NCBI GenBank assembly: GCA_036520835.1
Contig: DATDIX010000324.1
Coordinates: forward strand, 17,332-81,331
Source: Chitinophagaceae bacterium
GTDB taxonomy: Bacteria > Bacteroidota > Bacteroidia > Chitinophagales > Chitinophagaceae
Length of the DNA: 64,000 nucleotides
Reading direction: 5' to 3'
Position numbers and translations under genes: made by a program
Part shown: positions 5,825-53,262 of the stretch, piece after piece
How the letters are laid out: each line of letters opens with the position of its first letter
How positions within the stretch are numbered: position 1 is the stretch's first letter
Notes under the pieces: generated by a model
The model's database searches: none
The model's input: only the letters and a program-made list of their open reading frames with translations
What the model was told of the DNA's origin: nothing

Positions 5825-5828
5825 AGCG

Positions 5829-14675: not shown

Positions 14676-16967
14676 TTACTGGAATATTTTTTTCAGATAC
14701 ACCGTATTTGCTCCGTAATTATATTTTGTATCTGAGGCCTTTTTTGCATCGCGGCTTCGTTCGATCACCAGCCAGCCGCTCCAGCCCATTTCATCCAATG
14801 TCTTTTTCACTTTATACATGTCTATCTGCGGGTCCTTCTCCAGCCATACGCTGTCTTTGTTCGTGGCATGTATCATGCAGATACGGTCTTTCCCTAATAT
14901 TTTCAATTCTGATAATAGATCCCTGCCTTCTTTTAATGGATTGGAGAAATTGAAATAGATCTTAATGGCAGGCGAACCGATTTCCTTTAACAACTGTACT
15001 TCTTCTTTCGCACTCAGGGCGGTTTCAATACCAATCACTACATTGGCGGTTTCAGCCATCTTACCCGCTACTTTTAACCTGGCTACAACAGAATCCCTTA
15101 CAGAAGGATTTTTCTTTAAATCGCATTGCACACCCAATGGAAGAAATGCTGTCTTTACATTCATCAGCTTCATAGTAGTGATACAATCTTCAATAGATCT
15201 TTTATATTCCTCCCTGTTGCAGAATGACTGGGCATAATAACCCGTCATAGCTAAGGAAAATATTTCCACATTATTCTCTTTAGCGGTTTGCAAAAACTTA
15301 TTGCGTACTGAGTCAGTCAATAGCTGGTTATCAAATGTCGGTCGGGTGCCTAAACCTCCCATATCTACTTCTACCCCATCTGCTTTTAACTCGCCTGTAA
15401 GCGTGATAGCGCCTAATCGCTGTCTTTTTAATAACATCAGGTCGATCAAGCCAATTTTATACCGCTGGTTGTTCTTTGCTTTTTTTATTTCTTCGTCAAA
15501 AACCATTTCGAGGTTTTCAAACCCTTTAATGGCGTGTGCCGGTAGTCGTTCCCCTTTATCACCAAAAACATATAATGCCTGCTCAGGCTCAATAGTGATT
15601 TTTGATTCATCGATCTTACCAGCTACATCCTGTACAGCTTTTAAGTTCAATCCTAAATATTTCGCCATGAATTCGTACACTGCTGTTCTTTTATTGATAC
15701 CGAAATCATGTTTCTCATCCGGCAGGTGAACATTCACTACATTCTCCTTTTTACCATACCAGCTATACATCTTTTGTAAATAAGGAAAATCATGCTCTGG
15801 CATACGGTCCGTCCAATCACCGCCATCGCTTACTATTAATTGCGGGCGGGGCGCTGCCATCGCTGCAATCTCTACATTGTCTGTTCTTCCGCCACAACTA
15901 TGAATATCCATTCCGCTTTCACAGGGACAACCGCCATAGAAATAAGAAGAAAGCGAAACAACCGGGGCGGATACTTTGATGCGGTCATCCAGGGCTGTCA
16001 TCAACACGGTATGACTCCCTGCACCGGAACCACCGGTCATAGCTACACGATTGATATCTGCGTCCTTTAATGATAATAAATAATCAAGAATTCGGATACT
16101 GCCCAATGCCTGTATCGTCATCGACAAACTCCTGCGGTGGTCTTCAAGTTTAAATTGCAATAATGATTCGCCCCAGGCAAACAGATCGTAACTGAATGCC
16201 ATAGCTCCCATTTTTGCTAATGCCGCACAGCGATACTGGCAATCGGGGCGATACCGTTGTTTTTCCCAATGACCATCGGGATTAAGTATTACCGGTATCT
16301 TACCTTTATACTTTGCAGGTTTGTATAAAGATCCATTGATCCATACACCGGGTAATATTTCTAAGGCGATATTCTCAACTGTATATCCATCAAATTTTCT
16401 TTGCGCTGTGATGACAGGTTTGCCCTTGGGTGCGGCAGGCAAATGTGACAACTGCAACGCTTCAAGCAAACAGGGTTTTAATTCCATTTTCCGCTTTTCC
16501 CATTCTTCTGCTGTTTTGTATTGCGCAGCTATCCTGTCCAGTTCTGCCCAGCCTTCCTCCGGGTTCCAGCGATAATATTCATAATAACTCAGCTTATACA
16601 CTTTATCCTTTTCTTTTTTCACTTTCATGTCCAGCGGCTTCAGTATATTATCTAACGTAACTTCGACATCACTCCTGTATCTCCATTCAGCGTAGCTCAC
16701 TGTTTTATTGGCCACCATGCTATCGGGGTATTTGATGGTCACGCCATACTTCTTTTGAATATCTGTCAAAACCTGTTTTAAAGGTTTGCGGTACGCATTG
16801 TCAGCATTCAACTGGGCAAGAGTTGCATTAGCCCACAAAGACACCAGCACACAAAGAAGAAAGGTATATATCACGCAACGGCGCAAAGCCGTGACGTTTA
16901 GGTTTACTATTCCGGTGTTTCGTTGCCTCGTTGCACCTTTCCCGTAACCTTTAGTATTATTTCTCAT
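14676..16967 (-). CDS. Secreted tri-domain fusion: STN/DUF4974-like module, alpha/beta-hydrolase (esterase) domain and xylose-isomerase-like TIM-barrel domain
   Basis: The track ORF starts with TTG at 17018, so I use the ATG at 16967 (MRNNTKG...). It overlaps the upstream stop by 11 nt. The signal peptide is FLLCVLVSLWANATLAQ. The STN-like stretch reads PLKQVLTDIQKKYGVTIKYPDSMVANKTV...LDNILKPLDMKV. The hydrolase core reads VAMTGGSGAGSHT. The C-terminal ~270 aa (GVEVDMGG...VIGIETA...IYFNFSNP...CMIHATN...WLVIERS) resembles sugar-phosphate isomerase/epimerase TIM barrels. Confidence 0.65.
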   Translation of the reverse strand: MRNNTKGYGKGATRQRNTGIVNLNVTALRRCVIYTFLLCVLVSLWANATLAQLNADNAYRKPLKQVLTDIQKKYGVTIKYPDSMVANKTVSYAEWRYRSDVEVTLDNILKPLDMKVKKEKDKVYKLSYYEYYRWNPEEGWAELDRIAAQYKTAEEWEKRKMELKPCLLEALQLSHLPAAPKGKPVITAQRKFDGYTVENIALEILPGVWINGSLYKPAKYKGKIPVILNPDGHWEKQRYRPDCQYRCAALAKMGAMAFSYDLFAWGESLLQFKLEDHRRSLSMTIQALGSIRILDYLLSLKDADINRVAMTGGSGAGSHTVLMTALDDRIKVSAPVVSLSSYFYGGCPCESGMDIHSCGGRTDNVEIAAMAAPRPQLIVSDGGDWTDRMPEHDFPYLQKMYSWYGKKENVVNVHLPDEKHDFGINKRTAVYEFMAKYLGLNLKAVQDVAGKIDESKITIEPEQALYVFGDKGERLPAHAIKGFENLEMVFDEEIKKAKNNQRYKIGLIDLMLLKRQRLGAITLTGELKADGVEVDMGGLGTRPTFDNQLLTDSVRNKFLQTAKENNVEIFSLAMTGYYAQSFCNREEYKRSIEDCITTMKLMNVKTAFLPLGVQCDLKKNPSVRDSVVARLKVAGKMAETANVVIGIETALSAKEEVQLLKEIGSPAIKIYFNFSNPLKEGRDLLSELKILGKDRICMIHATNKDSVWLEKDPQIDMYKVKKTLDEMGWSGWLVIERSRDAKKASDTKYNYGANTVYLKKIFQ

Positions 16968-18510
16968 TCGTATTCCTTTTTTGCTGTCTCCAATTACTGT
17001 ATAATAAATTTCGGTCAATTACCGGTTTTGGAAAAAATAAACTGGCAATATATCCCACCACGATCACGATCAGGTGACTGTACACACCAAGCATCAGCTT
17101 ATGGTGTGTAAAATTATAGTCACCCAGATCCAGTAATACTTTTTTATTATGGACACCAACCGGTGTTGAGGTCAACAAAGCATAGGCCGTAAATAAAATA
17201 CAAACAATAATGCCGATATTAACTCCCTGCCGGTTGGCCCTTGCGCTCAGTATCCCCAGCAGGAAGATACCAACAATACCCCCGGAAAAGATCGCATATA
17301 AGGTAAAGACCACACCGAGTACCCCCTCGTTGCCTGTACGTAGATATAATGCCCCGATACCTGCGGAAATGATACCGGATAGCACAACGAGAATTTTCCC
17401 GGTGCGCAGGTATTGTTTGTCAGGTCTGCCGGGTTTTAGTTTTTTATAATAATCTTCCACTCCCACAGCAGCCAATGAATTCAGGTCAGCACTGAGGCTA
17501 CAGATAGCTGCGGATACCAATGCTGCTACAATGAAACCGACAATACCAGTCGGCAATTGCGTCATGATGAAATGAGGAAATGCGGCTTCGGCCTTCATCC
17601 CTTCCGGTAATCCTTGTTGCTTATAGAAAACAAATAAGGCTGTGCCAATAAACATAAACATGGTCCAGATTGGAACAGTAAGCGAGATACCCAGCAAGGA
17701 AGCCCTGATAGCTGATTTATCAGTCTTGGCGGTAAGATAACGCTGCACTACTGTTTGGTCAGTACCGTATTTCTGGATAGCATAGAAAGCACCGTTGATG
17801 ATCATAACGATGAGTGTCAACTGTGTAAGGTCTGTATTATAAGGCCCAAATCCTGCCCGATCATTTTCAGAAGCGATCTTTATGGCTTCGGGTACACCGC
17901 CTTTGATAGAGAACAATAATATGCCGAGGCAGATGATACCGCTGGCAAACAACATGAAACCCTGGAATACATCGAGCCAGATAACGGCCTGCATACCTCC
18001 TTTCAGGTTCACAATGATCAATACCAGGCTCACGATGGCAAGAATGGCAAATGCATTGATGCCGGTTATTTTGCTGATGGCTACAGCTATCAAAAAAAGA
18101 ACGGTCCCCATGCCCGCAAACTGGCGGAGAATAAAAGATGATGAGCTATAGTACCGGGCAAAAATCCCAAATCGCTTTTCAAAATACTCGTAAGTGCTTA
18201 ACCCGATCACTTTCCTGTAGAGTGGTACAATGAACCAGATAGTACCAAGCAGAACTATTGGAACCATCAATCCCTGCACTAATAAGATCCAGTTGCTGGT
18301 GAATCCCTGTGCAGGATAACCAAGAAAAGTAACACTGCTGATCAGGGTTGATAATAAGGAAAGCCCCAGTGCCCAGGAAGGAAAATTCCCTTTCGATAAA
18401 AAAAAGTTCTCCGTTGTGTTTTGCTTTTTAGAGAACCTGAAACCAAGATATAATGTGACCCCCATTACAAGCAGGATAATGCAATAATCTATAAAATGTA
18501 AGTGATTCAT
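16957..18510 (-). CDS. Sodium:solute symporter family transporter (SSS paralog 2)
   Basis: This is a polytopic membrane protein. The track start at 18525 is TTG, so I prefer the ATG at 18510 (MNHLHFIDYCIILLV...). Confidence 0.85.
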   Translation of the reverse strand: MNHLHFIDYCIILLVMGVTLYLGFRFSKKQNTTENFFLSKGNFPSWALGLSLLSTLISSVTFLGYPAQGFTSNWILLVQGLMVPIVLLGTIWFIVPLYRKVIGLSTYEYFEKRFGIFARYYSSSSFILRQFAGMGTVLFLIAVAISKITGINAFAILAIVSLVLIIVNLKGGMQAVIWLDVFQGFMLFASGIICLGILLFSIKGGVPEAIKIASENDRAGFGPYNTDLTQLTLIVMIINGAFYAIQKYGTDQTVVQRYLTAKTDKSAIRASLLGISLTVPIWTMFMFIGTALFVFYKQQGLPEGMKAEAAFPHFIMTQLPTGIVGFIVAALVSAAICSLSADLNSLAAVGVEDYYKKLKPGRPDKQYLRTGKILVVLSGIISAGIGALYLRTGNEGVLGVVFTLYAIFSGGIVGIFLLGILSARANRQGVNIGIIVCILFTAYALLTSTPVGVHNKKVLLDLGDYNFTHHKLMLGVYSHLIVIVVGYIASLFFPKPVIDRNLLYSNWRQQKRNTNEK

Positions 18511-18587
18511 TGGCGGCCTCCCCAAACCCCTCCTATGGAGAGGGTTAGAACCCTACTTTCGTAAAAGTTCAAACAGGTTCGTTAGTT

Positions 18588-19727
18588 TTATTTTATTAAA
18601 TACAATTTCACAATTTCTTCAGGCAGTTCATAACTACCCGGCTTTACAGTTATATATAAATCCTTTGCTTTCATCCGCACCACACCCCTTTCCAATTCAT
18701 TTACCAATGACAGCGTTTTAATATCCAGTTCGTTCAGAATGGACGCAGCGGTGGAACCACCTTCAATAAATAATTCTTTTACACTTCCTTTCTCCAGTAT
18801 CTTTTTAACAGCTGTAGCCATGATCGTCCGCAGGTACACGGGGGATGCATTCCATGGGTTTACATCCTCGTCATCGATCGCTATTACTGCCTTCTTATGT
18901 TTATCGAGCATTTCTGTTACCGTATTATACCAGGATTCATTATTGACATTACCTGTTTGCATCATGGCAGCCGGCATATAAGCTACACAGTTCAGTTCAT
19001 TTTTTATTCTTTTAATAAAATCACGGCTTTTCCCAAATGCTGTTCCGCTTACATACAAATGCGGTGATCCAACAGGGCTTACCGGTTTTACGGCAGCTTT
19101 GTATTTCCTGGCAAGTAATGCGTTGAAAAAATCACCGGCTCCGGCCAGCACCCAGTCATTATCTATTTTAGTTGCCCAGCCCGTAATATCCTTTTCAAAT
19201 ACCGCTTCACCGATAACAATACCCTTATCCGGCAAACTATCGGTATGTTTTAGAACCTTCACTTCACCGGTGCCGGCTCTTAACATCTGTACTACTGATG
19301 AATCCCTGATCGCAAACTCAGGATCAGTTTCAAAATCCGTTTCACTTATCGGGTCACCGTTGACAAAATAATTCCCGTTTTTAATTGTTCTGCCTAAAGA
19401 GGGGTTAGTTCCCAGGACCAGTGCCTTCGTTTTTCCTGACTGCTGCATCTGTATCTTCAATTCATCCAGTACATGACCACGAAAGACAGAATCAATTTTT
19501 TTATATATGAACTCCGGTTTTAATTTCAGCACTTCTTTCATCACCTCGTCTGTGATCCTTTTTGCATCAGTTTTATTCAAAGACCTGCTATCCGTGCAAA
19601 CAACAAACAGGTCTGCCCCGGTTTCCGGAATAACAGACGTAACTAACTCTACGGCCAGATCATACCGTAAACCTATCCCGGCAATTTCTGCGGCACCTGT
19701 AAGGTCATCTGCTATTACTGCAATCAT
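18588..19727 (-). CDS. DUF1537 four-carbon acid-sugar kinase family protein (D-threonate/D-erythronate kinase class)
   Basis: The 379-aa product begins MIAVIADDLTGAAEIAG, the characteristic ADDxTGA motif of DUF1537. Its start overlaps the PdxA-family stop in an ATGA arrangement. Confidence 0.8.
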   Translation of the reverse strand: MIAVIADDLTGAAEIAGIGLRYDLAVELVTSVIPETGADLFVVCTDSRSLNKTDAKRITDEVMKEVLKLKPEFIYKKIDSVFRGHVLDELKIQMQQSGKTKALVLGTNPSLGRTIKNGNYFVNGDPISETDFETDPEFAIRDSSVVQMLRAGTGEVKVLKHTDSLPDKGIVIGEAVFEKDITGWATKIDNDWVLAGAGDFFNALLARKYKAAVKPVSPVGSPHLYVSGTAFGKSRDFIKRIKNELNCVAYMPAAMMQTGNVNNESWYNTVTEMLDKHKKAVIAIDDEDVNPWNASPVYLRTIMATAVKKILEKGSVKELFIEGGSTAASILNELDIKTLSLVNELERGVVRMKAKDLYITVKPGSYELPEEIVKLYLIK

Positions 19728-20755
19728 TTCCTGTTCTTACTTAGTTGTACAGCGCTTTCGATCGCCAGTATCATGGCATCTGCGCTGGCAATACCTTTCC
19801 CTGCTATTTCAAAAGCAGTACCATGATCAACAGATGTGCGGATGATCGGCAAACCCATTGTTATATTCACTCCTTTCACACTATCCATTTGTTTCTTTTC
19901 TGCATTCCATTTGAAACCTGCGAGTTTAAAGGGGATATGCCCCTGGTCATGATACATAGCGACAACACCTCCATAAGCGCCGGTAGCTGCTTTTGCAAAT
20001 AAAGTGTCAGGAGGAACCGGGCCCTCCACATCAAAACCCATTTTCTTTGCTTCTTCCACTGCAGGTAATATCTCCAGGTCATCTTCCGTACCAAATAAGC
20101 CGCTATCACCGGCATGGGGGTTCAACCCCGCGATGCCAATTTTTAAATTTGTTTCACCCAGGCTGATCATACCATTATATAACAGCTGTGTCACTTCCAG
20201 TATGCGGTCTTTTTTTACCAGGTCGCAGGCCTGTCTTAATGATACATGCGTGGAAACATGGATCACTTTCATTTTGTCCTCCACCAGCAGCATGGCGTAT
20301 TTCTTTGTGCCCGTATAGTGAGCATAAATTTCTGTATGTCCCGCAAAATGATGCCCTGCTTCGTTGATCGATTTTTTATTGATAGGCCCGGTCACTGTTG
20401 CATCCACCTCTTTTGCCAATGCCAGTTCAATTGCTTTCTTCACTGCCTGGAAAGAGGCTTCCCCGCACATCGCAGCTATCTGGCCAAACACTAATTTGCT
20501 GGTATCAGTATTTTTCAAATCGTAGACATCAATAGTACCCAACTTAAATTTTGCATTGGCCACTTTATCAATGGCATTCACTTTTGCTTTTAATTTCAGC
20601 AGAGCAATGATCTGTTCAAACACGTCAGCGTCGCCCACCAAAACTGGTCTGCATATCTCATGAATCTTTTTTTCCAGCAATGCTTTTACGGCGATCTCCG
20701 GCCCGATACTCGCAGGGTCACCCATCGTTATTGCTATGATCGGTAATGAAGCCAT
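19724..20755 (-). CDS. pdxA2: PdxA-family NAD-dependent decarboxylating dehydrogenase (PdxA2-type, 4-phospho-tetronate dehydrogenase class)
   Basis: The 343-aa product carries the motifs IAITMGDPASIGPEI, HTEIYA and AMYHDQGHIPFK, which are typical of PdxA. Its position beside a DUF1537 kinase is the PdxA2 signature. Confidence 0.75.
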   Translation of the reverse strand: MASLPIIAITMGDPASIGPEIAVKALLEKKIHEICRPVLVGDADVFEQIIALLKLKAKVNAIDKVANAKFKLGTIDVYDLKNTDTSKLVFGQIAAMCGEASFQAVKKAIELALAKEVDATVTGPINKKSINEAGHHFAGHTEIYAHYTGTKKYAMLLVEDKMKVIHVSTHVSLRQACDLVKKDRILEVTQLLYNGMISLGETNLKIGIAGLNPHAGDSGLFGTEDDLEILPAVEEAKKMGFDVEGPVPPDTLFAKAATGAYGGVVAMYHDQGHIPFKLAGFKWNAEKKQMDSVKGVNITMGLPIIRTSVDHGTAFEIAGKGIASADAMILAIESAVQLSKNRK

Positions 20756-20757
20756 GA

Positions 20758-21660
20758 CTATCTCTCTATTTCTTTTAAAGATTGAACTAATTTTATTTTT
20801 TCTTCCTTTGATACTGGCTGCAAAGGAGGCATCACTGTCTCTTCACACAGGCCTTTTTCATTCATCAGTACTTTCAGCGCCCATAAACTCTCTCCTAAAG
20901 TTTTGTTGCTTTGGTACAGGTTACCATACGCATCAGACAATTGCTGCATTTCATAGGCTTTTTTATGATCAGCATTATCAACAGCTTTCAGCATTTCTGA
21001 ATAAATCTCCGGCACAAGGTTACCTGTACTCGGTACCAGGCCATCACTACCCCCGATAAGGGCAATAGCCGATTTGGCTGCCCAGCCCAGGAAATGCCCA
21101 AAATCCGTTCGTTCTTTCCATTTCTCCAAAGATTTCATCAACCGCTCTTCACTTCTTTCAGAATCCTTGGTCGCCACAATATGCGGATGATGACTCAATT
21201 CATCTATCAGTTCAACCGGGATACTCATATGTGTAGTAGCCGTGATATTATAAATGATCAACGGAGCAGCTATCGCATCCGCCAGGTCAATAAAATATTT
21301 TTTCATCTGGCTTTCTGACAAAGCGTAATAAGAAGGCAGGGTCGCAGCTACTGCATCCACGCCATTATCAAAACAAAACTTTGCAAAATCAACTGACTCA
21401 CTTAAACAATTGGAGGAGATGCCCGCATACAAAACCGTATCTTTCATTTTTACCTGTAACGCTTTTCTTACGTACGCCTCTTTTACCGGTAAGGACAATG
21501 AAGCTGATTCACCGGTGGTGCCTAAAATAAATGGTGATATATTCTGCTGATAAAACCTTGTAAATATTTTCTCAACAGCTCCCTCGTCCAGCTTGTAACC
21601 GGGGGTAAGCGGCGTAATTGCCGGCACAATAATTCCCTGGTATTTTTTATCCTTTCTCAT
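20758..21660 (-). CDS. DHDPS/NanA-family class I pyruvate aldolase (paralog 1)
   Basis: It contains the LGTTGESASLS motif and a Schiff-base lysine context (IVATKDS). The track start at 21663 is TTG. The ATG at 21660 overlaps the upstream TGA by 1 nt (TGATG). Confidence 0.8.
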   Translation of the reverse strand: MRKDKKYQGIIVPAITPLTPGYKLDEGAVEKIFTRFYQQNISPFILGTTGESASLSLPVKEAYVRKALQVKMKDTVLYAGISSNCLSESVDFAKFCFDNGVDAVAATLPSYYALSESQMKKYFIDLADAIAAPLIIYNITATTHMSIPVELIDELSHHPHIVATKDSERSEERLMKSLEKWKERTDFGHFLGWAAKSAIALIGGSDGLVPSTGNLVPEIYSEMLKAVDNADHKKAYEMQQLSDAYGNLYQSNKTLGESLWALKVLMNEKGLCEETVMPPLQPVSKEEKIKLVQSLKEIER

Positions 21661-22808
21661 CAATAAGCGGCTTTATAAATTTCAACGGCATCTTTTTCTT
21701 CGATCGGTCTCGGGTTATTTTTCAGCAGGCGTTGGATCTTCAAAGCGTCAACCGCCATTTGTGGGATAGCCGATTCAGGCACATTCACTTCTTTTAACGT
21801 GGCAGGAATACCACATGCTTTGATCAGGCTTTTTATTTTGCTGACACCGGCATAGGCTGTTGCTTCATCATTACTTTGTCTTTCACAACCCAGGGCAACA
21901 GCTACATCTGCATAGCGTTTCTCGGCAGCAGGAATATTATACTCCATTACATAAGGTAATAACAATGCATTGGACAAACCATGCGCCAGGTGAAACATAC
22001 TTCCGAGCGGATAAGATAAGGCATGAACCCCTGCTGTATTGACGGGGCCTAAACAAAATCCTCCGTACAAACTACCCATCGCTACCTGTGTACGTGCCTC
22101 AACATTGTTACCCTCTTTTACGGCTGTTTCAATATTTGCGGCGATCAAACGGATGCCTTCATAGGCATACATATCTATAAAAGGTAAAGCAAATTTGTTG
22201 GTATACGCTTCAAGGCAATGGGTCAACGCATCTATCCCTGTAGCCGCAGTTATAGCGGGAGGGACGGAGATCGTCAGCATCGGGTCAACATATACTATAT
22301 CCGGAACGAGATAAGGACTGATGATCCCTTTTTTTTGATTGTCTTCATCTACCAGTATCGCATTGGGTGATACTTCGCTGCCTGTACCGGATGTAGCAGG
22401 TACACAGATCAGTTTTTTCTTTCTTCCTTTCAATAACCCGATACCGACATATTCTTGTAACTGTTGTTCATTTTCTAATTGTGCAGCCACCAGTTTAGCG
22501 ATATCCAGTACACTGCCACCCCCAATACCGATCACTATGTCGGGATTGAATGGTGTTACTGTCTGCATGAGCTTTTCAAAATCACTGAATGTGGGCTCCT
22601 GCACAATAGAAGTATCGGTTAATATTGTAATCCGGCTTCTTTCAAGCAGGGCAATAAAATCAGCAATAGCTTCCTTTAAAGGGATGATGGTAGCAATAAA
22701 AACTTTAGCCGGTTTTAACTCCAGTACGTCATCTGCCAGCTGTACCAGGGTACCATTACCAAAAACTAATTTACCGGGAAAGAATATTTTGAGAGGATTG
22801 ACAGGCAT
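21660..22808 (-). CDS. Iron-containing (group III) alcohol dehydrogenase, FucO/lactaldehyde-reductase-like
   Basis: The 382-aa product has GIGGGSVLDIAKLVAA and a His-rich metal site (HALSYPLGSMFHLAHG). Confidence 0.8.
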   Translation of the reverse strand: MPVNPLKIFFPGKLVFGNGTLVQLADDVLELKPAKVFIATIIPLKEAIADFIALLERSRITILTDTSIVQEPTFSDFEKLMQTVTPFNPDIVIGIGGGSVLDIAKLVAAQLENEQQLQEYVGIGLLKGRKKKLICVPATSGTGSEVSPNAILVDEDNQKKGIISPYLVPDIVYVDPMLTISVPPAITAATGIDALTHCLEAYTNKFALPFIDMYAYEGIRLIAANIETAVKEGNNVEARTQVAMGSLYGGFCLGPVNTAGVHALSYPLGSMFHLAHGLSNALLLPYVMEYNIPAAEKRYADVAVALGCERQSNDEATAYAGVSKIKSLIKACGIPATLKEVNVPESAIPQMAVDALKIQRLLKNNPRPIEEKDAVEIYKAAY

Positions 22809-22821
22809 CTTTATTGATAAA

Positions 22822-23799
22822 TTATATAGCAGGATCCAAAGGCACTTTGGGTAGCATCAGGCTTTCAATATCAACCGGTTTTATTTTCAACCGCTCACAC
22901 CACAACCCGAAACTATCATGTATCTCATTCAGGGTTTGTTTCTGTTGGGGTGTCAACTCCAAAGCTGTTGCCCGGCTGATCGTTCGTATCGGCAATCCTC
23001 TTTTACGTAAAAAATATTTAGCACTCATGGGGTATGCCACATGTATCAGCGGGTCAACGCGGCTGATCTCCGATTGCAGCCATTTCACTTCTTCCTGCTT
23101 ATCCGGGTTAGTGGCATTGTTTACCATCCACACTAATATCTCGGGGTAAAAATTACCGGAAATAGATGACATCCCCTTTGCACCCATCTGCAAACTATAC
23201 ATTGCATTGGGTGAATGAGCATCGTAGAACTCCAGGCTATTCCCTGTATCTTTTAATATATCCAGCTTGGCCTTTACCCTTTCCAGTTCGATAGACGTGT
23301 CTTTATGATACACCAGCCGGTTAGCCGACAACAAGGTCTTGAATGTATCCGGCCCAATGATCCTTTTATACGGTGCCGGGCATTCATACATTCCCAAAGG
23401 AATATTGCCGGTAAGTTTGAACATCTTATCAAAATTGCGCAGCAGTATATCGTCACTGTCTTCAATATTGGCATAATGGCCGGTGATCAGTATCACCGCA
23501 CTAATTCCCGTATCATATATTTTCTTCGTAAACTCTGCTTTGTCTTCGATCGTCAGACCGAATGAACCGGTAGCCACTACCGGCACACGGCCATTGACAT
23601 ACTTCACAATATGCTGCGTCAGCTCCAGTCTTTCATCCTCTGTAATACTATACATTTCACTGCTCAGGCAATTAGCGAAAAAACCTTTGACACCCGCAGC
23701 TAAATAAAAATCAATGAGGTTACTCACCACATCCAGATCAACCTTTGCTTTGAGGTTGAAGGGGGTGATCATTACCGGAACAAATTTTCTGTCACTCAT
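22822..23799 (-). CDS. DHDPS/NanA-family class I aldolase (divergent paralog 2)
   Basis: The 325-aa product starts VPVMITPF and has a lysine context of VYHKDTS. The usual GxxGE motif is replaced by ANCLSSEMYS. Confidence 0.7.
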   Translation of the reverse strand: MSDRKFVPVMITPFNLKAKVDLDVVSNLIDFYLAAGVKGFFANCLSSEMYSITEDERLELTQHIVKYVNGRVPVVATGSFGLTIEDKAEFTKKIYDTGISAVILITGHYANIEDSDDILLRNFDKMFKLTGNIPLGMYECPAPYKRIIGPDTFKTLLSANRLVYHKDTSIELERVKAKLDILKDTGNSLEFYDAHSPNAMYSLQMGAKGMSSISGNFYPEILVWMVNNATNPDKQEEVKWLQSEISRVDPLIHVAYPMSAKYFLRKRGLPIRTISRATALELTPQQKQTLNEIHDSFGLWCERLKIKPVDIESLMLPKVPLDPAI

Positions 23800-23819
23800 A
23801 TCTCGCTTATTTAGAAGGT

Positions 23820-23887
23820 ATAAATATTCGATTTTTTAGCCCCAAAAAGATGTAGGATACTACTATTGTCCTGTATTATTTTACTTT
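23820..23887 (-). promoter_or_regulatory. Degenerate fourth copy of the operator-promoter module (candidate internal promoter)
   Basis: The minus strand reads AAAGTAAAATAATACAGGACAATAG (23887..23863). ATAG is retained at module position 22, TACATC (23854..23849) sits at module positions 34-39, and AATATTTAT (23828..23820) falls one nt short of the usual spacing. The ATG at 23799 follows. Confidence 0.35.
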
Positions 23888-23890
23888 TTA

Positions 23891-25459
23891 TCAGCTGGCA
23901 GCCACTATCTTACCGGTCCTGAACCTCGTTAGCAATAACCCCGCTAAAAAGATCGTCAGTGTTCCCACCACTATGATCATATTCTTGTGCAGCGGGCTCT
24001 TCAGAAAATTGTATTCCCCGCTGATCCTGTCGGAGAAGGTCATCCATAAAATAACGATAATACCAATGATCGTAGCCGTTAATGCTTCCGCATTCTTTGC
24101 CCTGCGGCTGATCAGTCCCAGCAAAAACAATCCCAGCATACCCCCTGCAAAAATACCTGACAACTCCCACCATATATCCAATAAACTTTTTGCACCGATC
24201 ATCGCCAGCCCGGTACCCAGCCCGATCAACCCGAATATGACTGTCGCCATATGCAGGATGAACAATTGCTGTTTATCGGTGATGCCCGGTCTGAAATGTC
24301 TTTTATAAATATCCATCGTGAAAACAGTAGCTGATGAATTCATATTAGAACTGATGGTACTCATAGCCGCAGACAAGATAGCAGAGACTATTAAACCCAC
24401 TAAGCCGGTTGGAACATTCGTCACCATGAAATGCGGTAACACTTTATCTCCGTAATCTGCGGCTTTAAATGACGCAGCCATTTCTGTTACCTGTTGTGAA
24501 GTAGCAACACTTCCCAACTTTTCTGCTGCCGCTTTTAATTTTACCGGTTCTATCATTTCCGGGTGCACCTGGTAAAATGCATATAAGGCAGCGCCGATGA
24601 TAAAAAATAATAAAGAAGCCGGCACATACATAGCTACACATAGCCACACAGATTTACTTGCTTGTTTTGCCGAGGTAGCGGTATGGTATCGTTGAATATA
24701 ATTCTGGTCCATACCAAAATTATTCAGGTTGATAAAGAAGCCATAGAACAGGATGACCCAGAATGTAGATTCGGTAAAATTGGGTGAAAGGCTTCCAAGA
24801 CTTAATTTATGATCCGCTTTAGCAATATCGATCACCTCCGAAAATCCACCCGGGATCTCTTTCACCACCAGGAACAATATTAAAACAGCACCCAATGTTT
24901 TAATAATACCCTGCACTACTTCCGTCCATATCACCGCTTCCATACCGCCGAGTACCGTATATATAATGATACAAATACCCATCACGATCATGATGGAAGC
25001 CATGGAGAAGCCTGTCAATGCCTGCAGGCTTAAAGCCATTCCAAAAAAAATAGAACCCATCCTCGCAAACTGTGTCAATAAAAAACAAACAACTGCATAG
25101 GTTCTTGCCCAGGAGCCAAAACGTTTTTCCAAATGTGTGTAGGCTGATATTTCCCCGGTGCTCCTGTAAAACGGGACAAAATATTTTGACGCAGCCCATG
25201 CAGCCAATGGCATAGAGATGCTGAATACAAAAGCATTCCAGTTACTGCCAAATGCCTTACCTGGTACGCCTAAAAAAGTATTGCTGCTTAAAAAGGTTGC
25301 ATAGATAGAAAGTCCGATGGCCCAGCCGGGGATCTTTCCAGATGCCCTGGTAAACTGCTCTGTATTCTTATTCCGCCGGGAAAAATAAAAGCCAATTGCT
25401 ACCATCGCAAGGAGGTACACAATGATTATGGCAATATCAAATACAGGCAGGCTATTCAT
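23891..25459 (-). CDS. Sodium:solute symporter family transporter (SSS paralog 3)
   Basis: The 522-aa product is polytopic. Its N-terminus is similar to that of the 16957-18510 paralog. Confidence 0.85.
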   Translation of the reverse strand: MNSLPVFDIAIIIVYLLAMVAIGFYFSRRNKNTEQFTRASGKIPGWAIGLSIYATFLSSNTFLGVPGKAFGSNWNAFVFSISMPLAAWAASKYFVPFYRSTGEISAYTHLEKRFGSWARTYAVVCFLLTQFARMGSIFFGMALSLQALTGFSMASIMIVMGICIIIYTVLGGMEAVIWTEVVQGIIKTLGAVLILFLVVKEIPGGFSEVIDIAKADHKLSLGSLSPNFTESTFWVILFYGFFINLNNFGMDQNYIQRYHTATSAKQASKSVWLCVAMYVPASLLFFIIGAALYAFYQVHPEMIEPVKLKAAAEKLGSVATSQQVTEMAASFKAADYGDKVLPHFMVTNVPTGLVGLIVSAILSAAMSTISSNMNSSATVFTMDIYKRHFRPGITDKQQLFILHMATVIFGLIGLGTGLAMIGAKSLLDIWWELSGIFAGGMLGLFLLGLISRRAKNAEALTATIIGIIVILWMTFSDRISGEYNFLKSPLHKNMIIVVGTLTIFLAGLLLTRFRTGKIVAAS

Positions 25460-25474
25460 CGTTAGTGTTAACCG

Positions 25475-26596
25475 TTAATCATCCGAAGGTTTTGTCACCG
25501 TGTTCACCACCCCCGGCCATTGCTCCTTTTTGATCTCTTTCAGCTGTAGTTTTTTGGGATCAACCACTACGTATTTGATCCTTTCCCTTCTCCATGTATA
25601 AACAATATGCACCAGCCCGTCTTTTGATTCTATCACTGATGGATAGGAATATTGACTGATGGGCGAATCTTCCAGGATCAAAGCGGCATACCATTTTTTC
25701 CCATCTGTTGATACAGCTACATTTAAAGGCGTTCTCGCTCCTTTGCCATTGGGCAAAGTATCATGTGGTTTTACATGATTATACACCAGTAACTGTTTTC
25801 CGTCCTCCAGGGTTACGGCATCTGTGCCGGAATTATTATTAGGCAATGATGAAGCAGTCATAGCGCTCCATGTTTTTCCGCCATCTTTGCTCCAGCTTTC
25901 ATTGATCGTTCTGTTCTTGCTCCTGCATAATACCTGCAGGCTCCCATCCTTATATTTTAAAATGGATGGTTGTATGGCACTGATGATCTTACCATCATTG
26001 ATGGGTTCTGATTTTGTCCATGTCCTGCCAAGGTCATTGGTGTATTCAAAATGCACTTTCCAACCGTTTTTCTCCGTACTCGAAGGACATATCAATGTGC
26101 CATTGATCAGTTCAGGCTTGTTTTTTATGGGGCCCAAAAACCCGGCGGGTAATGCTTCCCGCTGGCTCCAGGTATGGCCATTATCTTTTGAGCGTATCAT
26201 CCATCCTGTCCAGCCTCCTACATTAGGACCTATTTTATAGAACAATAACAATTCCCCGTTGGGTACCTGGAACAATACAGGATTGTAACAGGCATAACGG
26301 GTAGTATCATTGATGACCCCTTCAGCCACTTTAGCAGGCGCTGTCCATTTATTATTTACAAGATGGCTTGTCCATATACATACATCTTTATGTCCTTCCC
26401 TTGTACCACCAAACCAGGCAGCAATAATGCCTTCAGGAGTTTCTGCAATAGTGGATGCATGTGCCGACGGAAAAGAGGCTTCGGTATAGATGAATTCATC
26501 CACCAGGATGCCTTTTTTCCATTTGGTATCCTGTGCCTGCATACAATTGAATCCCGCAAGCAGGATAAATATGCCGGTTATAAATTGTTTCTTCAT
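25475..26596 (-). CDS. Secreted sialidase-fold (BNR/Asp-box) beta-propeller glycosidase; candidate ulosonic-acid (Kdo/Dha) hydrolase
   Basis: The 373-aa product has a signal peptide and four Asp-box-like motifs (SKDNGHTWS, TNDLGRTWT, SKDGGKTWS, STDGKKWY). Confidence 0.7.
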   Translation of the reverse strand: MKKQFITGIFILLAGFNCMQAQDTKWKKGILVDEFIYTEASFPSAHASTIAETPEGIIAAWFGGTREGHKDVCIWTSHLVNNKWTAPAKVAEGVINDTTRYACYNPVLFQVPNGELLLFYKIGPNVGGWTGWMIRSKDNGHTWSQREALPAGFLGPIKNKPELINGTLICPSSTEKNGWKVHFEYTNDLGRTWTKSEPINDGKIISAIQPSILKYKDGSLQVLCRSKNRTINESWSKDGGKTWSAMTASSLPNNNSGTDAVTLEDGKQLLVYNHVKPHDTLPNGKGARTPLNVAVSTDGKKWYAALILEDSPISQYSYPSVIESKDGLVHIVYTWRRERIKYVVVDPKKLQLKEIKKEQWPGVVNTVTKPSDD

Positions 26597-26597
26597 A

Positions 26598-27323
26598 CTA
26601 CTGATTCGTTTTTTGTTTTTCTGCTTCTTTTTGCGCTTTTACTTTATCAACATAAGCCTTGTACAACTGTCGCCAGTTACGGCCATTATTATTCAGGTAT
26701 TGCTCACATTTCGTTTTATAGATCTCGAAAATAGCAGAGATCTGTGTCATACTTTTATAATCAATCGCCTGCTCCCTTGCCTGCTTGAGGTGTTCAAGGA
26801 TCTTTGTCGCTTCTTCTTTTGTCAGATCAGGAACGATTGATTTGTACCCGGCCAGGGTAAATGCCACTTTACCTATTGTATACTTATCCAATATTAACTC
26901 TACCTGCTCAGGCGCCAGTTCTTTCTTTAATACACTCATGAGGTTCTCATGCACAGATGCAGGCTTTGCAGAATTAGCGATCACCTGCCGGTCAAGCTCT
27001 GACAATTTATTACCGGTGACGGGATTAATACCCGCAGGAACAGTGGTAAAAGGATGCTCGTTATTCCAGTCACGGACAGCCTTCAAATGCGTGGCAACAG
27101 CATCGGCAACTCTTTTCTCCTTTGCCGGATCATTTAACTGTAACCCTGCGACCCATTCAGTGGCTTTCGTTTCCAGTTCAGTATTTGCTTTAGCTACAGC
27201 TTCTTCCGCTGATAATTTTGTTGAAACTGTGCTTTGTGTTTCCTGCCCCTTCGCAGTTTGAAGAACGGTACCGGTAATGAACAACACAGTGCACAATAAA
27301 CAATTGGTAATTTTTTTCAGCAT
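26598..27323 (-). CDS. DUF3826-family secreted protein (paralog 1), function unknown
   Basis: The 241-aa product has a signal peptide and is helical and Lys/Glu-rich (LILDKYTIGKVAFTLAGYK...EQAIDYKS). It is recognisably paralogous to the product of 58399-59181. Confidence 0.65.
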   Translation of the reverse strand: MLKKITNCLLCTVLFITGTVLQTAKGQETQSTVSTKLSAEEAVAKANTELETKATEWVAGLQLNDPAKEKRVADAVATHLKAVRDWNNEHPFTTVPAGINPVTGNKLSELDRQVIANSAKPASVHENLMSVLKKELAPEQVELILDKYTIGKVAFTLAGYKSIVPDLTKEEATKILEHLKQAREQAIDYKSMTQISAIFEIYKTKCEQYLNNNGRNWRQLYKAYVDKVKAQKEAEKQKTNQ

Positions 27324-27330
27324 TGTTTAA

Positions 27331-30090
27331 TTATTTAATGGTGAAAGATTTACTGGTAAATGAATAATTGCCGCTCCCGATTTCCATTACCGCATTACCA
27401 TTTTCCATTCCAATAAAACGTATGCCTTCGGCTGTGGCAACAGTATTGCCATTATCCTGTACATCACCCGGCCCTGCAGCAGGTATATATATAATTGCTT
27501 TTGCATTAGCCGGCACATTAATATTCCAAACCAGCCCATTATCTCCTTTTGTCCAATGACTGATGATCGTTCCATAAAAAGACCGGTAAGAAGCATCCAC
27601 TTCGTTCAGACCTTTCACAAAAGATGGTTTCATGATGATCTCTTTGAAAGCAGTTGTATTCGTATTTGAACTGATCCCTGCTATATCTTCATACAGCCAG
27701 ATCAGGAAATCACCCAATAACATTACATGGTTCTGTGAATTCATTTGCGGGCTGGCCGTGTTGCCATTCCACAATTCCCAGATGGTAGTGGCTCCCTGCT
27801 CGGCCATATAGCCCCAGCTTGGATAAGTCTTATTGGAAGCCAGTGCATAGGCAATATCCGGATAGCCATAATCTGTTATTCCCCGCATCAGCCACTGCGT
27901 ACCGATAACACCCGTGCTGATATGCATCCCGTCTTTTACCGTGATCCTGTCATAAATATTATTGAATATGGTTTTCTTCAGGCTGTCGGGTGCCATACCG
28001 AAATACAGCGGGAGTAAATTTGCCGTGATCGTGTTATTGTCATAACATTTCCGCTGGTTATTATAAAATTTTTTATGAAAAGCGGACCTGATATTCTCAC
28101 CCAATACATCATAACTTTTCACATCCCCGTTATTACCACTCAGTACGGCAAACTTTTTCATCAGTTGCAGCAAGCGGTAATAATAAGCGGTAGAGATCAA
28201 CTCCCCGTTAGTTGTACGAAGGCTGTCTCTTGATCGTATGATCTCTAAGCTCTCGGGTGGCACGCACCAATCTCCGTATTTATCCTTTGTTACAATAAAG
28301 CCTTTCATATATTTAGTTTGCATGTACTGCATCCATTTCTTCATAGAGGCATAATGTTTACTAATAGGACGTTCATCCCCGAACTGACGGTGCAACATAT
28401 CAGCAACAAGGAGATAAGTACCTGGCCATGTCACATTATCCGTATAATAATTCCAGAATGCGGGTGCTACGTCAGGGATAGCGCCTGCCGTTGTTTGTGA
28501 TTCTTCTATATCATCCAGCCACTTTGCATACAATTTTGAATTATCAAACATAAAAGCTTCTCCACCCGATCCCGTAGCCCGGTCACCAAGCCAAGGTTGC
28601 CGTTCATTCCGTTGCGGACAATCTACGGGCATACCTTTATAATTGGAAGCAATTCCCCACCAGGCATTCCGGTATATTTTATTGATCACAGAGTCAGAAG
28701 AAACAAATGAACCGGTTGTTGACAGGTCATCATATATGAACTTCCCTTCAAAGTCGCTGATCGCAGGATTACCCGGGTATCCATTAATTTCCACGTAACG
28801 AAACCCGTGGTATACAAAAGATGGCTGCCACTCTTCTACGCCTTCTCCTTTCAATGTATAGATATCCGTCACTCTGGCGTCGCGGAGATTGGCAATATAT
28901 AATTCACCGTTTGATTGTAAACTTTCCGCGAAACGAAGTTTTACAGCTGTGCCGCGGTTCCCTTTTACTTTAATTTTCAGCCACCCGGAAAAATTCTGTC
29001 CCATATCGAGAATATGTTTCCCATTACCGGTATTTTTTATTCCCACAGGCATAACAGATCGCATTATCCGCATCGGCTCATTCATCTGGGCTTCCAGCTT
29101 TCCTGCAGGCGCCTGCACTAACTGTGGTTTTATCCATTTACTATCATCAAAACCAGCATCTGTCCATCCTTTCAATTCTTTAGTGGCATCATACTCTTCC
29201 CCATCATACTCATTGTTGGTCCGGATCGGGCCATCTACGTTCAATTTCCAGCTCCCATCACTGATCACTGTTTGTTTTGTGCCATCAGCATATTCTATTT
29301 CCAGTTGCAGCAACATTTTAGGATAACCAAATGTGTTGTGCTTTTGTGTCTTATAATTCTGCCGCATAGTAAAGAAGCGGCCATTTCCCAAAACGGTAGC
29401 CACTGCATTATTCCCTGCTATTATATCTTTTGTAACATCATAAGTATTGTACAAAACCGATTTCCGGTAATCTGTGGGTGCAGGCGCCAATACATGATCG
29501 CCAATCCTTTTTCCATTGAGATATAATTCATATAATCCAAGCCCGATAATATATACCGTTGCCCTTTTTACACCTGACTTCGATTCAAACTGTTTCCTGA
29601 AATACCGGGCCGACAGCCTTGACCATTGAGTAATGCTATCCCAGGGAGATGCTTTATCGTAACCGATCCATTTGCCCTGCCAGTCATTGCCTGACAGCAG
29701 GCCCATTGTCCAATATGACATCTCACTCCATGCTGATTCACCTTTATTTGTAAAGACTTTCACTTTCCAAAAAAATTGTTCCCTGCTCGCTGGTTTTTTC
29801 CCTTTATAAACAACATGTATGGATTGAGAAGAGTTTACTTTCCCGGAATTCCAGAGATCACCTTCGTTGTTTGCAGCTTTCTCCTTTGTAGAAGAGACAA
29901 TGATATGATACGCTGTTTGCTGAACGTTCCGTTGATTTGATTCTATTTGCCAGCTAAGCCGGGGATCTTTTACATCAATACCCAAAGGATCTACCAGCAT
30001 TTCACAACGCAGGTTACTACTATGCACCTGCGCCTTAGCTGCATACAGGCACAGGAGACAAAAAAGAAATATGACTAGTTTTCGTTTCAT
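27331..30090 (-). CDS. GH78 alpha-L-rhamnosidase
   Basis: The 919-aa product has a signal peptide. The N-terminal domain pattern is LRCEMLVDPLGID...PRLSWQ, and the catalytic-domain hallmark is PVDCPQRNERQPWLGDRA. Confidence 0.88.
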   Translation of the reverse strand: MKRKLVIFLFCLLCLYAAKAQVHSSNLRCEMLVDPLGIDVKDPRLSWQIESNQRNVQQTAYHIIVSSTKEKAANNEGDLWNSGKVNSSQSIHVVYKGKKPASREQFFWKVKVFTNKGESAWSEMSYWTMGLLSGNDWQGKWIGYDKASPWDSITQWSRLSARYFRKQFESKSGVKRATVYIIGLGLYELYLNGKRIGDHVLAPAPTDYRKSVLYNTYDVTKDIIAGNNAVATVLGNGRFFTMRQNYKTQKHNTFGYPKMLLQLEIEYADGTKQTVISDGSWKLNVDGPIRTNNEYDGEEYDATKELKGWTDAGFDDSKWIKPQLVQAPAGKLEAQMNEPMRIMRSVMPVGIKNTGNGKHILDMGQNFSGWLKIKVKGNRGTAVKLRFAESLQSNGELYIANLRDARVTDIYTLKGEGVEEWQPSFVYHGFRYVEINGYPGNPAISDFEGKFIYDDLSTTGSFVSSDSVINKIYRNAWWGIASNYKGMPVDCPQRNERQPWLGDRATGSGGEAFMFDNSKLYAKWLDDIEESQTTAGAIPDVAPAFWNYYTDNVTWPGTYLLVADMLHRQFGDERPISKHYASMKKWMQYMQTKYMKGFIVTKDKYGDWCVPPESLEIIRSRDSLRTTNGELISTAYYYRLLQLMKKFAVLSGNNGDVKSYDVLGENIRSAFHKKFYNNQRKCYDNNTITANLLPLYFGMAPDSLKKTIFNNIYDRITVKDGMHISTGVIGTQWLMRGITDYGYPDIAYALASNKTYPSWGYMAEQGATTIWELWNGNTASPQMNSQNHVMLLGDFLIWLYEDIAGISSNTNTTAFKEIIMKPSFVKGLNEVDASYRSFYGTIISHWTKGDNGLVWNINVPANAKAIIYIPAAGPGDVQDNGNTVATAEGIRFIGMENGNAVMEIGSGNYSFTSKSFTIK

Positions 30091-36932: not shown

Positions 36933-36939
36933 TCCTATA

Positions 36940-39074: not shown

Positions 39075-39083
39075 TTGCGTGGT

Positions 39084-40022: not shown

Positions 40023-40024
40023 CT

Positions 40025-41811: not shown

Positions 41812-41851
41812 TTGCTTTAAACTTCCTGGACCTTTTAAACTTGTTAAATCT

Positions 41852-53242: not shown

Positions 53243-53262
53243 ATACAAGTTCAATTTTATAA

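Follow-up and report, generated by a model that had tools for sequence, protein, structure and literature searches.

The DNA analysed here is a stretch of 64,000 nucleotides from a Chitinophagaceae bacterium (assembly GCA_036520835.1, contig DATDIX010000324.1, positions 17,332 to 81,331 of the forward strand), referred to below at its full length as the window, with positions counted from its first letter. [quoted passage not shown] Open reading frames (ORFs), Pfam domains and NCBIfam scores were read in the window. All eight ORFs were indeed found at the positions assigned to them, all on the minus strand, and the Pfam profiles agreed with the family named for each. As documented below by comparison with related loci, this eight-gene stretch is made of two separable cassettes and not of one linear pathway. 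The genes, in which SSS stands for sodium:solute symporter and Fe-ADH for iron-dependent alcohol dehydrogenase, are as follows, with a nearby pair of upstream genes at the head of the list and a more distant hydrolase gene at its end.

27331-30090, minus strand: GH78 alpha-L-rhamnosidase; all five GH78 Pfam domains match
26598-27323, minus strand: DUF3826 protein, which travels with the GH78/GH33 pair; PF12875, 237 bits
25475-26596, minus strand: sialidase-fold, GH33-like hydrolase, predicted Kdo hydrolase; BNR_2, 311 bits; N-terminal signal peptide
23891-25459, minus strand: SSS1, SiaT-like symporter, predicted Kdo importer; SSF domain; SiaT is the best PDB match
22822-23799, minus strand: aldolase B, predicted Kdo aldolase; DHDPS family PF00701, 100.1 bits
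21660-22808, minus strand: group III Fe-ADH, predicted 2,3-dihydroxy-4-oxobutanoate reductase; Fe-ADH and ADH_Fe_C domains
20758-21660, minus strand: aldolase A, predicted Dha aldolase; DHDPS family PF00701, 131.7 bits
19724-20755, minus strand: PdxA2-type dehydrogenase, predicted 4-phospho-D-threonate oxidative decarboxylase; PF04166, 343.8 bits
18588-19727, minus strand: DUF1537 four-carbon acid-sugar kinase, predicted D-threonate 4-kinase; SBD_N and NBD_C domains
16957-18510, minus strand: SSS2, SiaT-like symporter, predicted Dha importer; SSF domain; SiaT is the best PDB match
43280-45106, minus strand: BT_1020-like propeller of GH143 type, predicted periplasmic Dha hydrolase; PF24067 and Sialidase-like_CBM

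From the BNR_2 gene to SSS2 the successive gaps are 15, 91, 13, -1, 2, -4 and 77 nucleotides. The three junctions that join the Fe-ADH, aldolase A, PdxA2 and kinase genes thus measure -1, +2 and -4 nucleotides and overlap in two of the three cases, the Fe-ADH stop overlapping the aldolase A start and the kinase start overlapping the PdxA2 stop by 4 nucleotides. The ORF list gives upstream TTG starts for aldolase A and SSS2 (20758-21663 and 16957-18525), within which fall the ATG starts at 21660 and 18510. Among the hydrolase and the five enzymes, a signal peptide was found in the BNR_2 protein only, the five enzymes being devoid of one. A scan for promoters and terminators between 14 and 31 kb returned counts equal to the shuffled expectation.

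The RG-II setting and the hydrolases that would release Kdo and Dha

The RG-II setting was borne out, since the window is a co-directional RG-II polysaccharide utilization locus (PUL) with homologues of both ulosonic-acid hydrolases. Its RG-II set comprises three GH78 proteins and a fourth rhamnosidase-like protein, two GH2 proteins, two DUF3826 proteins, two SusC/SusD pairs, a GH140-type apiosidase domain, and a GH141 protein fused to a RhaM domain. The two hydrolase families are those represented in the RG-II PUL of Bacteroides thetaiotaomicron by BT1013 and BT1020; the N-terminal GH143 domain of BT1020 is a validated Dha hydrolase, and in BT1013 a GH78 rhamnosidase and a Kdo hydrolase are joined in one protein (PMC13501991). 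The BT1020-like gene of the window lies 17 kb upstream of the catabolic genes, and its product scored 384.8 bits on PF24067 (Beta-prop_BT_1020) and 205.6 bits on Sialidase-like_CBM; judged by these profiles, it is predicted to be a periplasmic Dha hydrolase that supplies the substrate.

Relatives of the BNR_2 protein were sought exhaustively among 1.8 billion representative proteins, which gave 684 matches at E<=1e-30. In five of the seven long representatives checked, a GH78 domain was followed by a C-terminal BNR_2 domain with 50-64% identity to the window protein; of the remaining long ones, one combined GH2 with BNR_2, and one carried an added xylose-isomerase-like TIM barrel. Because fusion of GH78 to BNR_2 is the architecture of BT1013, the GH33-like protein is read as a BT1013-type enzyme and is predicted to be a Kdo hydrolase. 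Of the features expected of such a hydrolase, the BNR_2 domain, the export signal, and the GH78 link and fusions that relate to chain C of RG-II are present. In the window a GH78 gene sits two genes upstream of the GH33-like gene, and in many related loci the DUF3826 gene stands between the two; this GH78 enzyme (27331-30090) probably takes the rhamnose cap off the Kdo of chain C ahead of the GH33-like enzyme.

It is to be noted that the gene at 14676-17018 (minus strand) encodes an exported glucuronoyl-esterase-like domain fused to a xylose-isomerase-like TIM barrel (AP_endonuc_2), and that the two halves are separate genes in three related loci (L013, L077 and L126). The barrel also occurs joined to GH78 and BNR_2 in a single protein (representative P0244), which ties it to the Kdo-releasing step. 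This gene was considered as a member of the cytoplasmic pathway and rejected, as its product has a signal peptide and the gene is kept in loci that lack the second cassette described below.

Modularity of the gene set across related loci

Related loci were sampled in two ways, 80 genome loci by way of aldolase B and 80 metagenome loci by way of an alignment of aldolase A; the window proteins were mapped onto them with flanks of 10 kb. Architectures were counted in the 65 loci that were anchored on both sides, from the GH33-like gene to the downstream esterase. Eight architectures were found between the two anchors:

SSS1-AldB-FeADH-AldA-PdxA2-DUF1537-SSS2, the order of the window: 41 of 65 loci
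SSS1-AldB: 7 of 65 loci
AldB and the five-gene block, without SSS1: 6 of 65 loci
The five-gene block FeADH-AldA-PdxA2-DUF1537-SSS2 alone: 5 of 65 loci
SSS1-AldB-AldA-SSS2, two carrier-plus-lyase pairs: 3 of 65 loci
SusC-SSS1-AldB: 1 of 65 loci
SSS1-AldB-PdxA2-DUF1537-SSS2: 1 of 65 loci
AldB-AldA-PdxA2-DUF1537-SSS2: 1 of 65 loci

Recurrence of the identical seven-gene order in 41 of the 65 loci argues that the arrangement is not due to chance, and the other 24 hold recognizable sub-sets of it. Among the 65 anchored loci, the Fe-ADH gene was confined to those with aldolase A, SSS2 was present with every copy of aldolase A and every kinase/PdxA2 pair, and SSS1 never occurred without aldolase B; PdxA2 and the DUF1537 kinase were found together in 54 of 54 loci. 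Six more metagenome loci placed the five-gene block away from any GH33 gene (five complete, one ending at the contig edge), with an MGH1-like hydrolase, DUF3826 and a SASA-type esterase as its neighbors. In all, aldolase B was missing from at least 11 of the loci that have the five-gene block or aldolase A. Aldolase A therefore co-varies with Fe-ADH, PdxA2, the kinase and SSS2, and aldolase B with SSS1 and the sialidase-fold hydrolases; these two groups are the two cassettes, referred to here as cassette 2 and cassette 1, respectively. Among cultured Chitinophagaceae, Lacibacter luteus TTM-7 and Ferruginibacter sp. SUN106 have both of them, and Parafilimonas terrae DSM 28286 and Segetibacter sp. 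3557_3 have cassette 1 alone.

The aldolase B module reaches beyond RG-II. Aldolase B with an SSS carrier was also found outside RG-II loci, next to a BNR_2 or a propeller protein: in two loci the pair adjoins another, divergently transcribed BNR_2 protein of 396 amino acids (L066, 8630-12536; L075, 1961-5974), and in a third it adjoins a DUF3748 beta-propeller (L051, 6894-10963). Such pairs suggest a general ulosonic-acid scavenging cassette in Chitinophagaceae. That these copies might be a separate paralogue was considered and rejected; a neighbor-joining tree intermixes them with the RG-II-linked copies, and they are thus orthologues. Two further loci outside RG-II (L055:7264-10963 and L059:7511-12536) hold, in this order, an AraC regulator, an SSS, a divergent protein of the fumarylacetoacetate hydrolase (FAH) family and aldolase B, to which L059 adds an aldehyde dehydrogenase (ALDH); their aldolase B orthologues are 80-83% identical. 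The FAH protein bears a weak resemblance to GguC/AraD1 and to the 2-keto-3-deoxy-pentonate dehydratase type, and the ALDH to 2,5-dioxovalerate dehydrogenase; one may speculate that they form a lower oxidative pentose route, perhaps for D-arabinose.

As to cassette 2, in L137 (7291-11147) a stand-alone copy precedes a SASA-type (sialate O-acetylesterase-like) esterase gene and a trio of genes in which a FAH-family gene is flanked by two short-chain dehydrogenase/reductase (SDR) genes, an SDR-FAH-SDR set typical of non-phosphorylative L-fucose/L-rhamnose catabolism.

Carriers, aldolases and the putative D-threonate enzymes

The best PDB match of both carriers is SiaT, the sialic-acid symporter of Proteus mirabilis (5NV9), at 249 bits in either case, with runners-up at 155 bits for SSS1 and 127 bits for SSS2. 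In SiaT, Ser60 and Thr63, together with a salt bridge to Arg135, hold the carboxylate of N-acetylneuraminic acid, Gln82 and Thr58 contact its glycerol tail and anomeric hydroxyl, and the contact made by Gln250 is mediated by water (PMC5931594). Ser60, Thr63 and Arg135 are invariant in 61 SSS1 orthologues, in which position 250 is Asn. Among 41 SSS2 orthologues, Ser60 and Thr63 are likewise invariant, and two basic residues line the pocket: an invariant Lys250, and Arg131 in 39 of the 41 or Lys135 in the other two, position 135 being otherwise Gly or Ala. The third SSS of the window, SSS0 (4241-5824; examined in the window copy only), has neither the Ser60/Thr63 pair nor the basic residue of transmembrane helix 3, and carries Phe at position 250. 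By PDB match and residues taken together, SSS1 and SSS2 are SiaT-like, of the sialic-acid carrier type, and SSS0 is not. Judged from the alignment, the single basic pocket residue of SSS1 would fit the monocarboxylate Kdo, and the two of SSS2 would fit the dicarboxylate Dha.

Both aldolases pass the gathering score of PF00701 (22.1), at 131.7 bits for A and 100.1 bits for B. Their residues were numbered on the NanA sequence, by which nine landmark residues were reproduced. All 44 orthologues of aldolase A and all 80 of aldolase B keep the equivalents of the catalytic Tyr137 and the Schiff-base Lys165 of NanA. The carboxylate motif is the canonical GTTGE in aldolase A; in aldolase B it reads CLSSE, in which Ser/Ser and Glu are kept and the glycines are lost. 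Aldolase A further has equivalents of His144 and Arg169 that, with GTTGE, Tyr137 and Lys165, are invariant in 18-44 orthologues, and aldolase B has a conserved Lys144 and Arg145. A PDB sequence search with either protein retrieved distant DapA, NanA and YagE relatives only, at 105 bits or less, so that both appear by homology to be without a characterized close relative. Aldolase B is 76-94% identical across Chitinophagaceae, as opposed to 33-64% for the DUF1537 kinase of the same loci and operon. Weak cleavage of Kdo has been described for members of the N-acetylneuraminate lyase (NAL) family, namely NanA from E. coli and human NPL. A Kdo aldolase activity (EC 4.1.2.23) was described in 1966, and no gene is named for it in the literature found on this activity.

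The PdxA homologue was confirmed to be of the PdxA2 type, as had been proposed. It scored 277-280 bits against Salmonella PdxA2 (2hi1), the Klebsiella D-threonate-4-phosphate dehydrogenase (6e85) and 4jqp, as opposed to 172-178 bits against the housekeeping PdxA of E. coli (175 bits), Salmonella and others; it is thus about 100 bits nearer to the former group. Alignments to 2hi1, 6e85 and 1ps7 revealed the metal-binding and active-site motifs of the PdxA fold, GHTE, NPHAG, YHDQG and RTSVDHGTA, and among the aligned structures the extended motif YHDQGHIP is common to the window protein and the PdxA2 group only. An insertion of 11 residues (WNAEKKQMDSV, approximately 284-294) lies between YHDQGHIPFK and GVNIT; none of the five solved PdxA/PdxA2 proteins that were aligned has it. 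A housekeeping role in place of the catabolic one was rejected, as the gene is missing here in 11 of the 65 loci and always accompanies the kinase.

The kinase is short (379 amino acids) and strongly divergent. It begins MIAVIADDLTGA, contains the N-terminal DDxTG motif, and matches both domains of its family (SBD_N, 116 bits; NBD_C, 34.3 bits against a cut-off of 28.3). A kinase of identical sequence is on record in a Chitinophagaceae metagenome-assembled genome. Its best NCBIfam model is D-threonate kinase (NF047819, 113.3 bits), followed by 3-oxo-tetronate kinase (59.6 bits), and its orthologues are named D-threonate/D-erythronate kinase by JGI. The Fe-ADH falls below every NCBIfam equivalog cut-off, the nearest models being ErcA, lactaldehyde reductase and 4-hydroxybutyrate dehydrogenase; on the FucO lactaldehyde reductase model (TIGR02638) it scored 237.8 bits and failed the cut-off of 523.

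Three other parts of the window deserve mention. At 4241-6920 (minus strand), the sugar-type SSS0 is paired with a GFO/IDH/MocA oxidoreductase, downstream of the GH141 protein with its C-terminal RhaM mutarotase domain (6928-9453, minus strand); this pair may serve the uptake and oxidation of a neutral RG-II sugar. A second catabolic cluster (34451-43267, minus strand) encodes a GlpK-like FGGY kinase, an RbsB-like ATP-binding cassette (ABC) transporter with DUF2291, a split transketolase (40025-41892) and an isomerase with a FucI C-domain (41852-43267), for which the NCBIfam names are generic only; a non-oxidative transketolase route for D-apiose has reportedly been described, and the cluster would fit it. 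Lastly, a large DUF6298 protein (47423-50455, 846 bits) and two proteins without a Pfam match (50505-52163 and 52313-53254), all on the minus strand, are candidates for further RG-II activities.

Proposed routes for the two acids, and their alternatives

We propose that the two cassettes are parallel, sialic-acid-style systems that release, import and split the two RG-II ulosonic acids, one serving Kdo and the other Dha. In the periplasm, the GH78 enzyme would strip the rhamnose cap, after which the GH33-like hydrolase would release Kdo; the GH143-like enzyme would release Dha. In cassette 1, SSS1, with its one carboxylate-binding arginine, would bring in Kdo, and aldolase B would cleave it to pyruvate and D-arabinose. 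In cassette 2, SSS2, with its two basic pocket residues, would bring in the dicarboxylate Dha, and aldolase A would cleave it to pyruvate and 2,3-dihydroxy-4-oxobutanoate; the Fe-ADH would reduce this aldehyde to D-threonate, the DUF1537 kinase would phosphorylate D-threonate to 4-phospho-D-threonate, and the PdxA2 enzyme would convert the latter by oxidative decarboxylation to dihydroxyacetone phosphate (DHAP) and CO2. The net reaction would be Dha + ATP to pyruvate + DHAP + CO2, and the route would be redox-neutral, since PdxA2 would give back the reducing equivalent used by the Fe-ADH. Each of the four cytoplasmic enzymes in cassette 2 would thereby gain a role, with no step missing. Gene content, families, conserved linkage and modularity, the likeness of the carriers to SiaT and of the dehydrogenase to PdxA2, and the GH78 fusions in the hydrolase family are observed; the substrates and products named here, and the allotment of each aldolase to its acid, are what we infer; for the two cassettes with the roles as proposed, our estimate of the probability is roughly 0.55.

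The stereochemistry agrees with this route. The derivation by Fischer projection given in the original prediction, by which D-lyxo Dha leads to D-threonate after retro-aldol cleavage and reduction, was repeated with the same result. In D-lyxo Dha the hydroxyls of C4 and C5 point left and that of C6 right, and retro-aldol cleavage between C3 and C4 leaves OHC-C5-C6-COOH. When this four-carbon acid is renumbered from its carboxyl and the projection is turned by 180 degrees, the C2 hydroxyl is on the left and the C3 hydroxyl on the right, and reduction therefore gives D-threonate. The outline of a catabolic set that ends in the D-threonate/PdxA2 route has held up computationally. Its unity has not, as the genes form two cassettes; likewise, the earlier implication that Dha goes to aldolase B and Kdo to aldolase A is probably reversed, because it is aldolase A, not B, that co-varies with the threonate enzymes.

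Several observations weigh against this reading. The main exception to the co-variation is one locus (L013) that has aldolase B, PdxA2, the kinase and SSS2 without aldolase A and Fe-ADH. Moreover, aldolase B lacks SSS1 in seven loci, the GH33-like gene is followed directly by cassette 2 in five, and Parafilimonas terrae (L077) has the GH143-like gene without cassette 2 within 10 kb. Basic residues are conserved in both aldolases, and mapping of the active sites to NanA singles out neither as the one that binds a diacid. The genes around aldolase B in the window offer no evident route for D-arabinose. The kinase score of 113.3 bits is far under the NF047819 cut-off of 450, and the PdxA2 protein reached 321.8 bits on the D-threonate-4-phosphate dehydrogenase model (NF002891), under the cut-off of 583; because it missed this cut-off while passing that of the general pdxA model (TIGR00557, 337 bits, cut-off 290), its substrate is not fixed by sequence alone. 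Finally, all related loci belong to Chitinophagaceae-like genomes or to unclassified metagenome contigs; the best 120 homologues each of aldolase B and of the kinase are all Chitinophagaceae-like, and the loci nearest to the window are Ferruginibacter-like. It should be added that Kdo and Dha share the configuration of C4 to C6, so that a single carrier or lyase could take both acids, and such shared acceptance may explain the loci with one carrier or one lyase.

The alternative that survives best, although we consider it unlikely, is an exchange of the two aldolases, in which B would cleave Dha and feed the Fe-ADH, kinase and PdxA2, and A would cleave Kdo. The aldolase B gene is the next one upstream of the Fe-ADH gene, 13 nucleotides away, L013 retains it with PdxA2, the kinase and SSS2 as just described, and the conserved Lys-Arg pair of aldolase B, just past YxxP, falls near the position of DapA Arg138, a residue that binds the carboxylate of the aldehyde substrate of DapA. 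However, at least 11 loci carry the Fe-ADH-AldA-PdxA2-kinase-SSS2 set and no aldolase B, 7 RG-II loci and several outside RG-II in turn carry aldolase B and SSS1 with no gene of that set, and SSS1, the constant partner of aldolase B, has the single-carboxylate triad of SiaT.

It is quite improbable that the aldolases act on Kdo and/or Dha while the Fe-ADH, kinase and PdxA2 serve a different RG-II constituent, aceric acid, by reduction of its C1, phosphorylation of the new primary alcohol, and oxidative decarboxylation as a beta-hydroxy acid to a 5-deoxypentulose 1-phosphate. On chemical grounds, the reduced and phosphorylated form would be an alpha-substituted analogue of 4-phospho-D-threonate; in addition, aceric acid is O-acetylated in RG-II, and SASA-type esterases adjoin cassette 2 in L137 and L139. 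We know of no catabolic route for aceric acid. This scheme, however, gives aldolase A nothing to do in the translationally coupled operon to which it belongs, and requires a DHAP-dependent aldolase that is absent; it also sits poorly with the resemblance of SSS2 to a ulosonic-acid carrier and with the existence of AldA-SSS2 pairs without the other three enzymes.

Very improbable, too, is a deoxyhexose route in which one or both aldolases split 2-keto-3-deoxy-L-fuconate or 2-keto-3-deoxy-L-rhamnonate to pyruvate and L-lactaldehyde, with the Fe-ADH as a FucO-type lactaldehyde reductase. RG-II is rich in rhamnose and fucose, the window has several GH78 proteins, GH141 and a RhaM domain, the Fe-ADH scored 238 bits on the lactaldehyde reductase model, and FAH-family and ALDH genes lie beside aldolase B in L055 and L059. 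That score nonetheless missed the equivalog cut-off of 523, and the cassette is without the sugar dehydrogenase, lactonase and dehydratase of such a route, which in any case offers no explanation for PdxA2 and the kinase. Unlike the sugar-type SSS0, the two carriers resemble SiaT and have residues for binding a carboxylate, and in L137 a separate SDR-FAH-SDR fucose set stands beside cassette 2.

Least probable of all is oxidative catabolism of the RG-II sugar D-apiose, in which the PdxA-family protein would be D-apionate oxidoisomerase (ApnO) and the DUF1537 protein 3-oxo-isoapionate kinase (OiaK), reportedly also a PdxA-family/DUF1537 pair, but the cassette has no RuBisCO-like OiaC/OiaX, apiose dehydrogenase or lactonase, the window already holds a transketolase-type sugar cluster that fits apiose, the protein is nearest to PdxA2 and retains RTSVDHGTA (the substrate-phosphate-binding motif of PdxA), and nothing would be left for aldolase A and the Fe-ADH to do. 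Every one of these alternatives either fails to account for one or more genes of the coupled operon or requires genes that are absent.

The proposed Kdo and Dha routes draw on known systems, in that the enzyme families, nan-type harvesting and the DtnK/PdxA2 logic are already established. As in the nan sialic-acid system (NanH, SiaT/NanT, NanA), a sialidase-fold hydrolase is combined here with an SSS carrier and a lyase of the DHDPS/NAL type; nan, however, deals with host glycans, whereas the window is a plant RG-II PUL with two parallel copies of the scheme. Furthermore, SSS1 and SSS2 lack Gln82 and Thr58 of SiaT, the window lyases reach no more than about 60 bits against the NanA of the PDB, and the NanK, NanE and N-acetylmannosamine steps are not found in the window cassettes. 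For D-threonate, catabolism by DtnK (DUF1537) and PdxA2 has reportedly been described, with a DUF1537 kinase adjacent to a PdxA2-type dehydrogenase as in the window. The window pair differs in being fed by an aldolase and an Fe-ADH within a glycan locus, in its short and divergent kinase, in the 11-residue insertion of its PdxA2, and in scores that lie below the equivalog cut-offs.

A chemical parallel is offered by the glucarate/galactarate route of E. coli, in which the aldolase GarL, the tartronate-semialdehyde reductase GarR and the kinase GarK similarly accomplish aldol cleavage of a 2-keto-3-deoxy-aldaric acid to pyruvate and an aldehydo-acid, followed by reduction and phosphorylation. 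The Gar enzymes belong to different families (HpcH-type aldolase, beta-hydroxyacid dehydrogenase, glycerate kinase), and because Dha is one carbon longer, the additional oxidative decarboxylation by PdxA2 is needed. What would be new is the combination of both halves, together with an aldolase and Fe-ADH bridge from Dha to D-threonate. In agreement with the original prediction, a full-text literature search, with most subscription journals outside its reach, found no described Dha pathway. Cytoplasmic catabolic cassettes such as those of the window have not been described for B. thetaiotaomicron and the tested Flavobacterium; Kdo is secreted and not consumed by B. thetaiotaomicron and by most of the Flavobacterium strains tested, and Kdo pathways in other gut microbes are unconfirmed (2026 preprint). 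With odds that we place slightly short of even, the cassettes could be the first catabolic routes to be defined genetically for the two ulosonic acids of RG-II.

RG-II has been described as the most complex of all known glycans, and its depolymerization has been mapped, while the fate of its unusual sugars has not. If the proposal is true, the EC 4.1.2.23 activity would gain a gene in aldolase B, an aldolase dedicated to Kdo, and aldolase A with the Fe-ADH would constitute a new two-step entry from Dha to D-threonate. Dha would then be a natural dietary and soil source of D-threonate for the DtnK/PdxA2 pathway, and in SSS2 a carrier of the SiaT type would have been adapted to a dicarboxylic ulosaric acid. 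The cassettes would also provide markers that distinguish RG-II degraders that retain these acids from those that leak them, which bears on cross-feeding in soil and gut.

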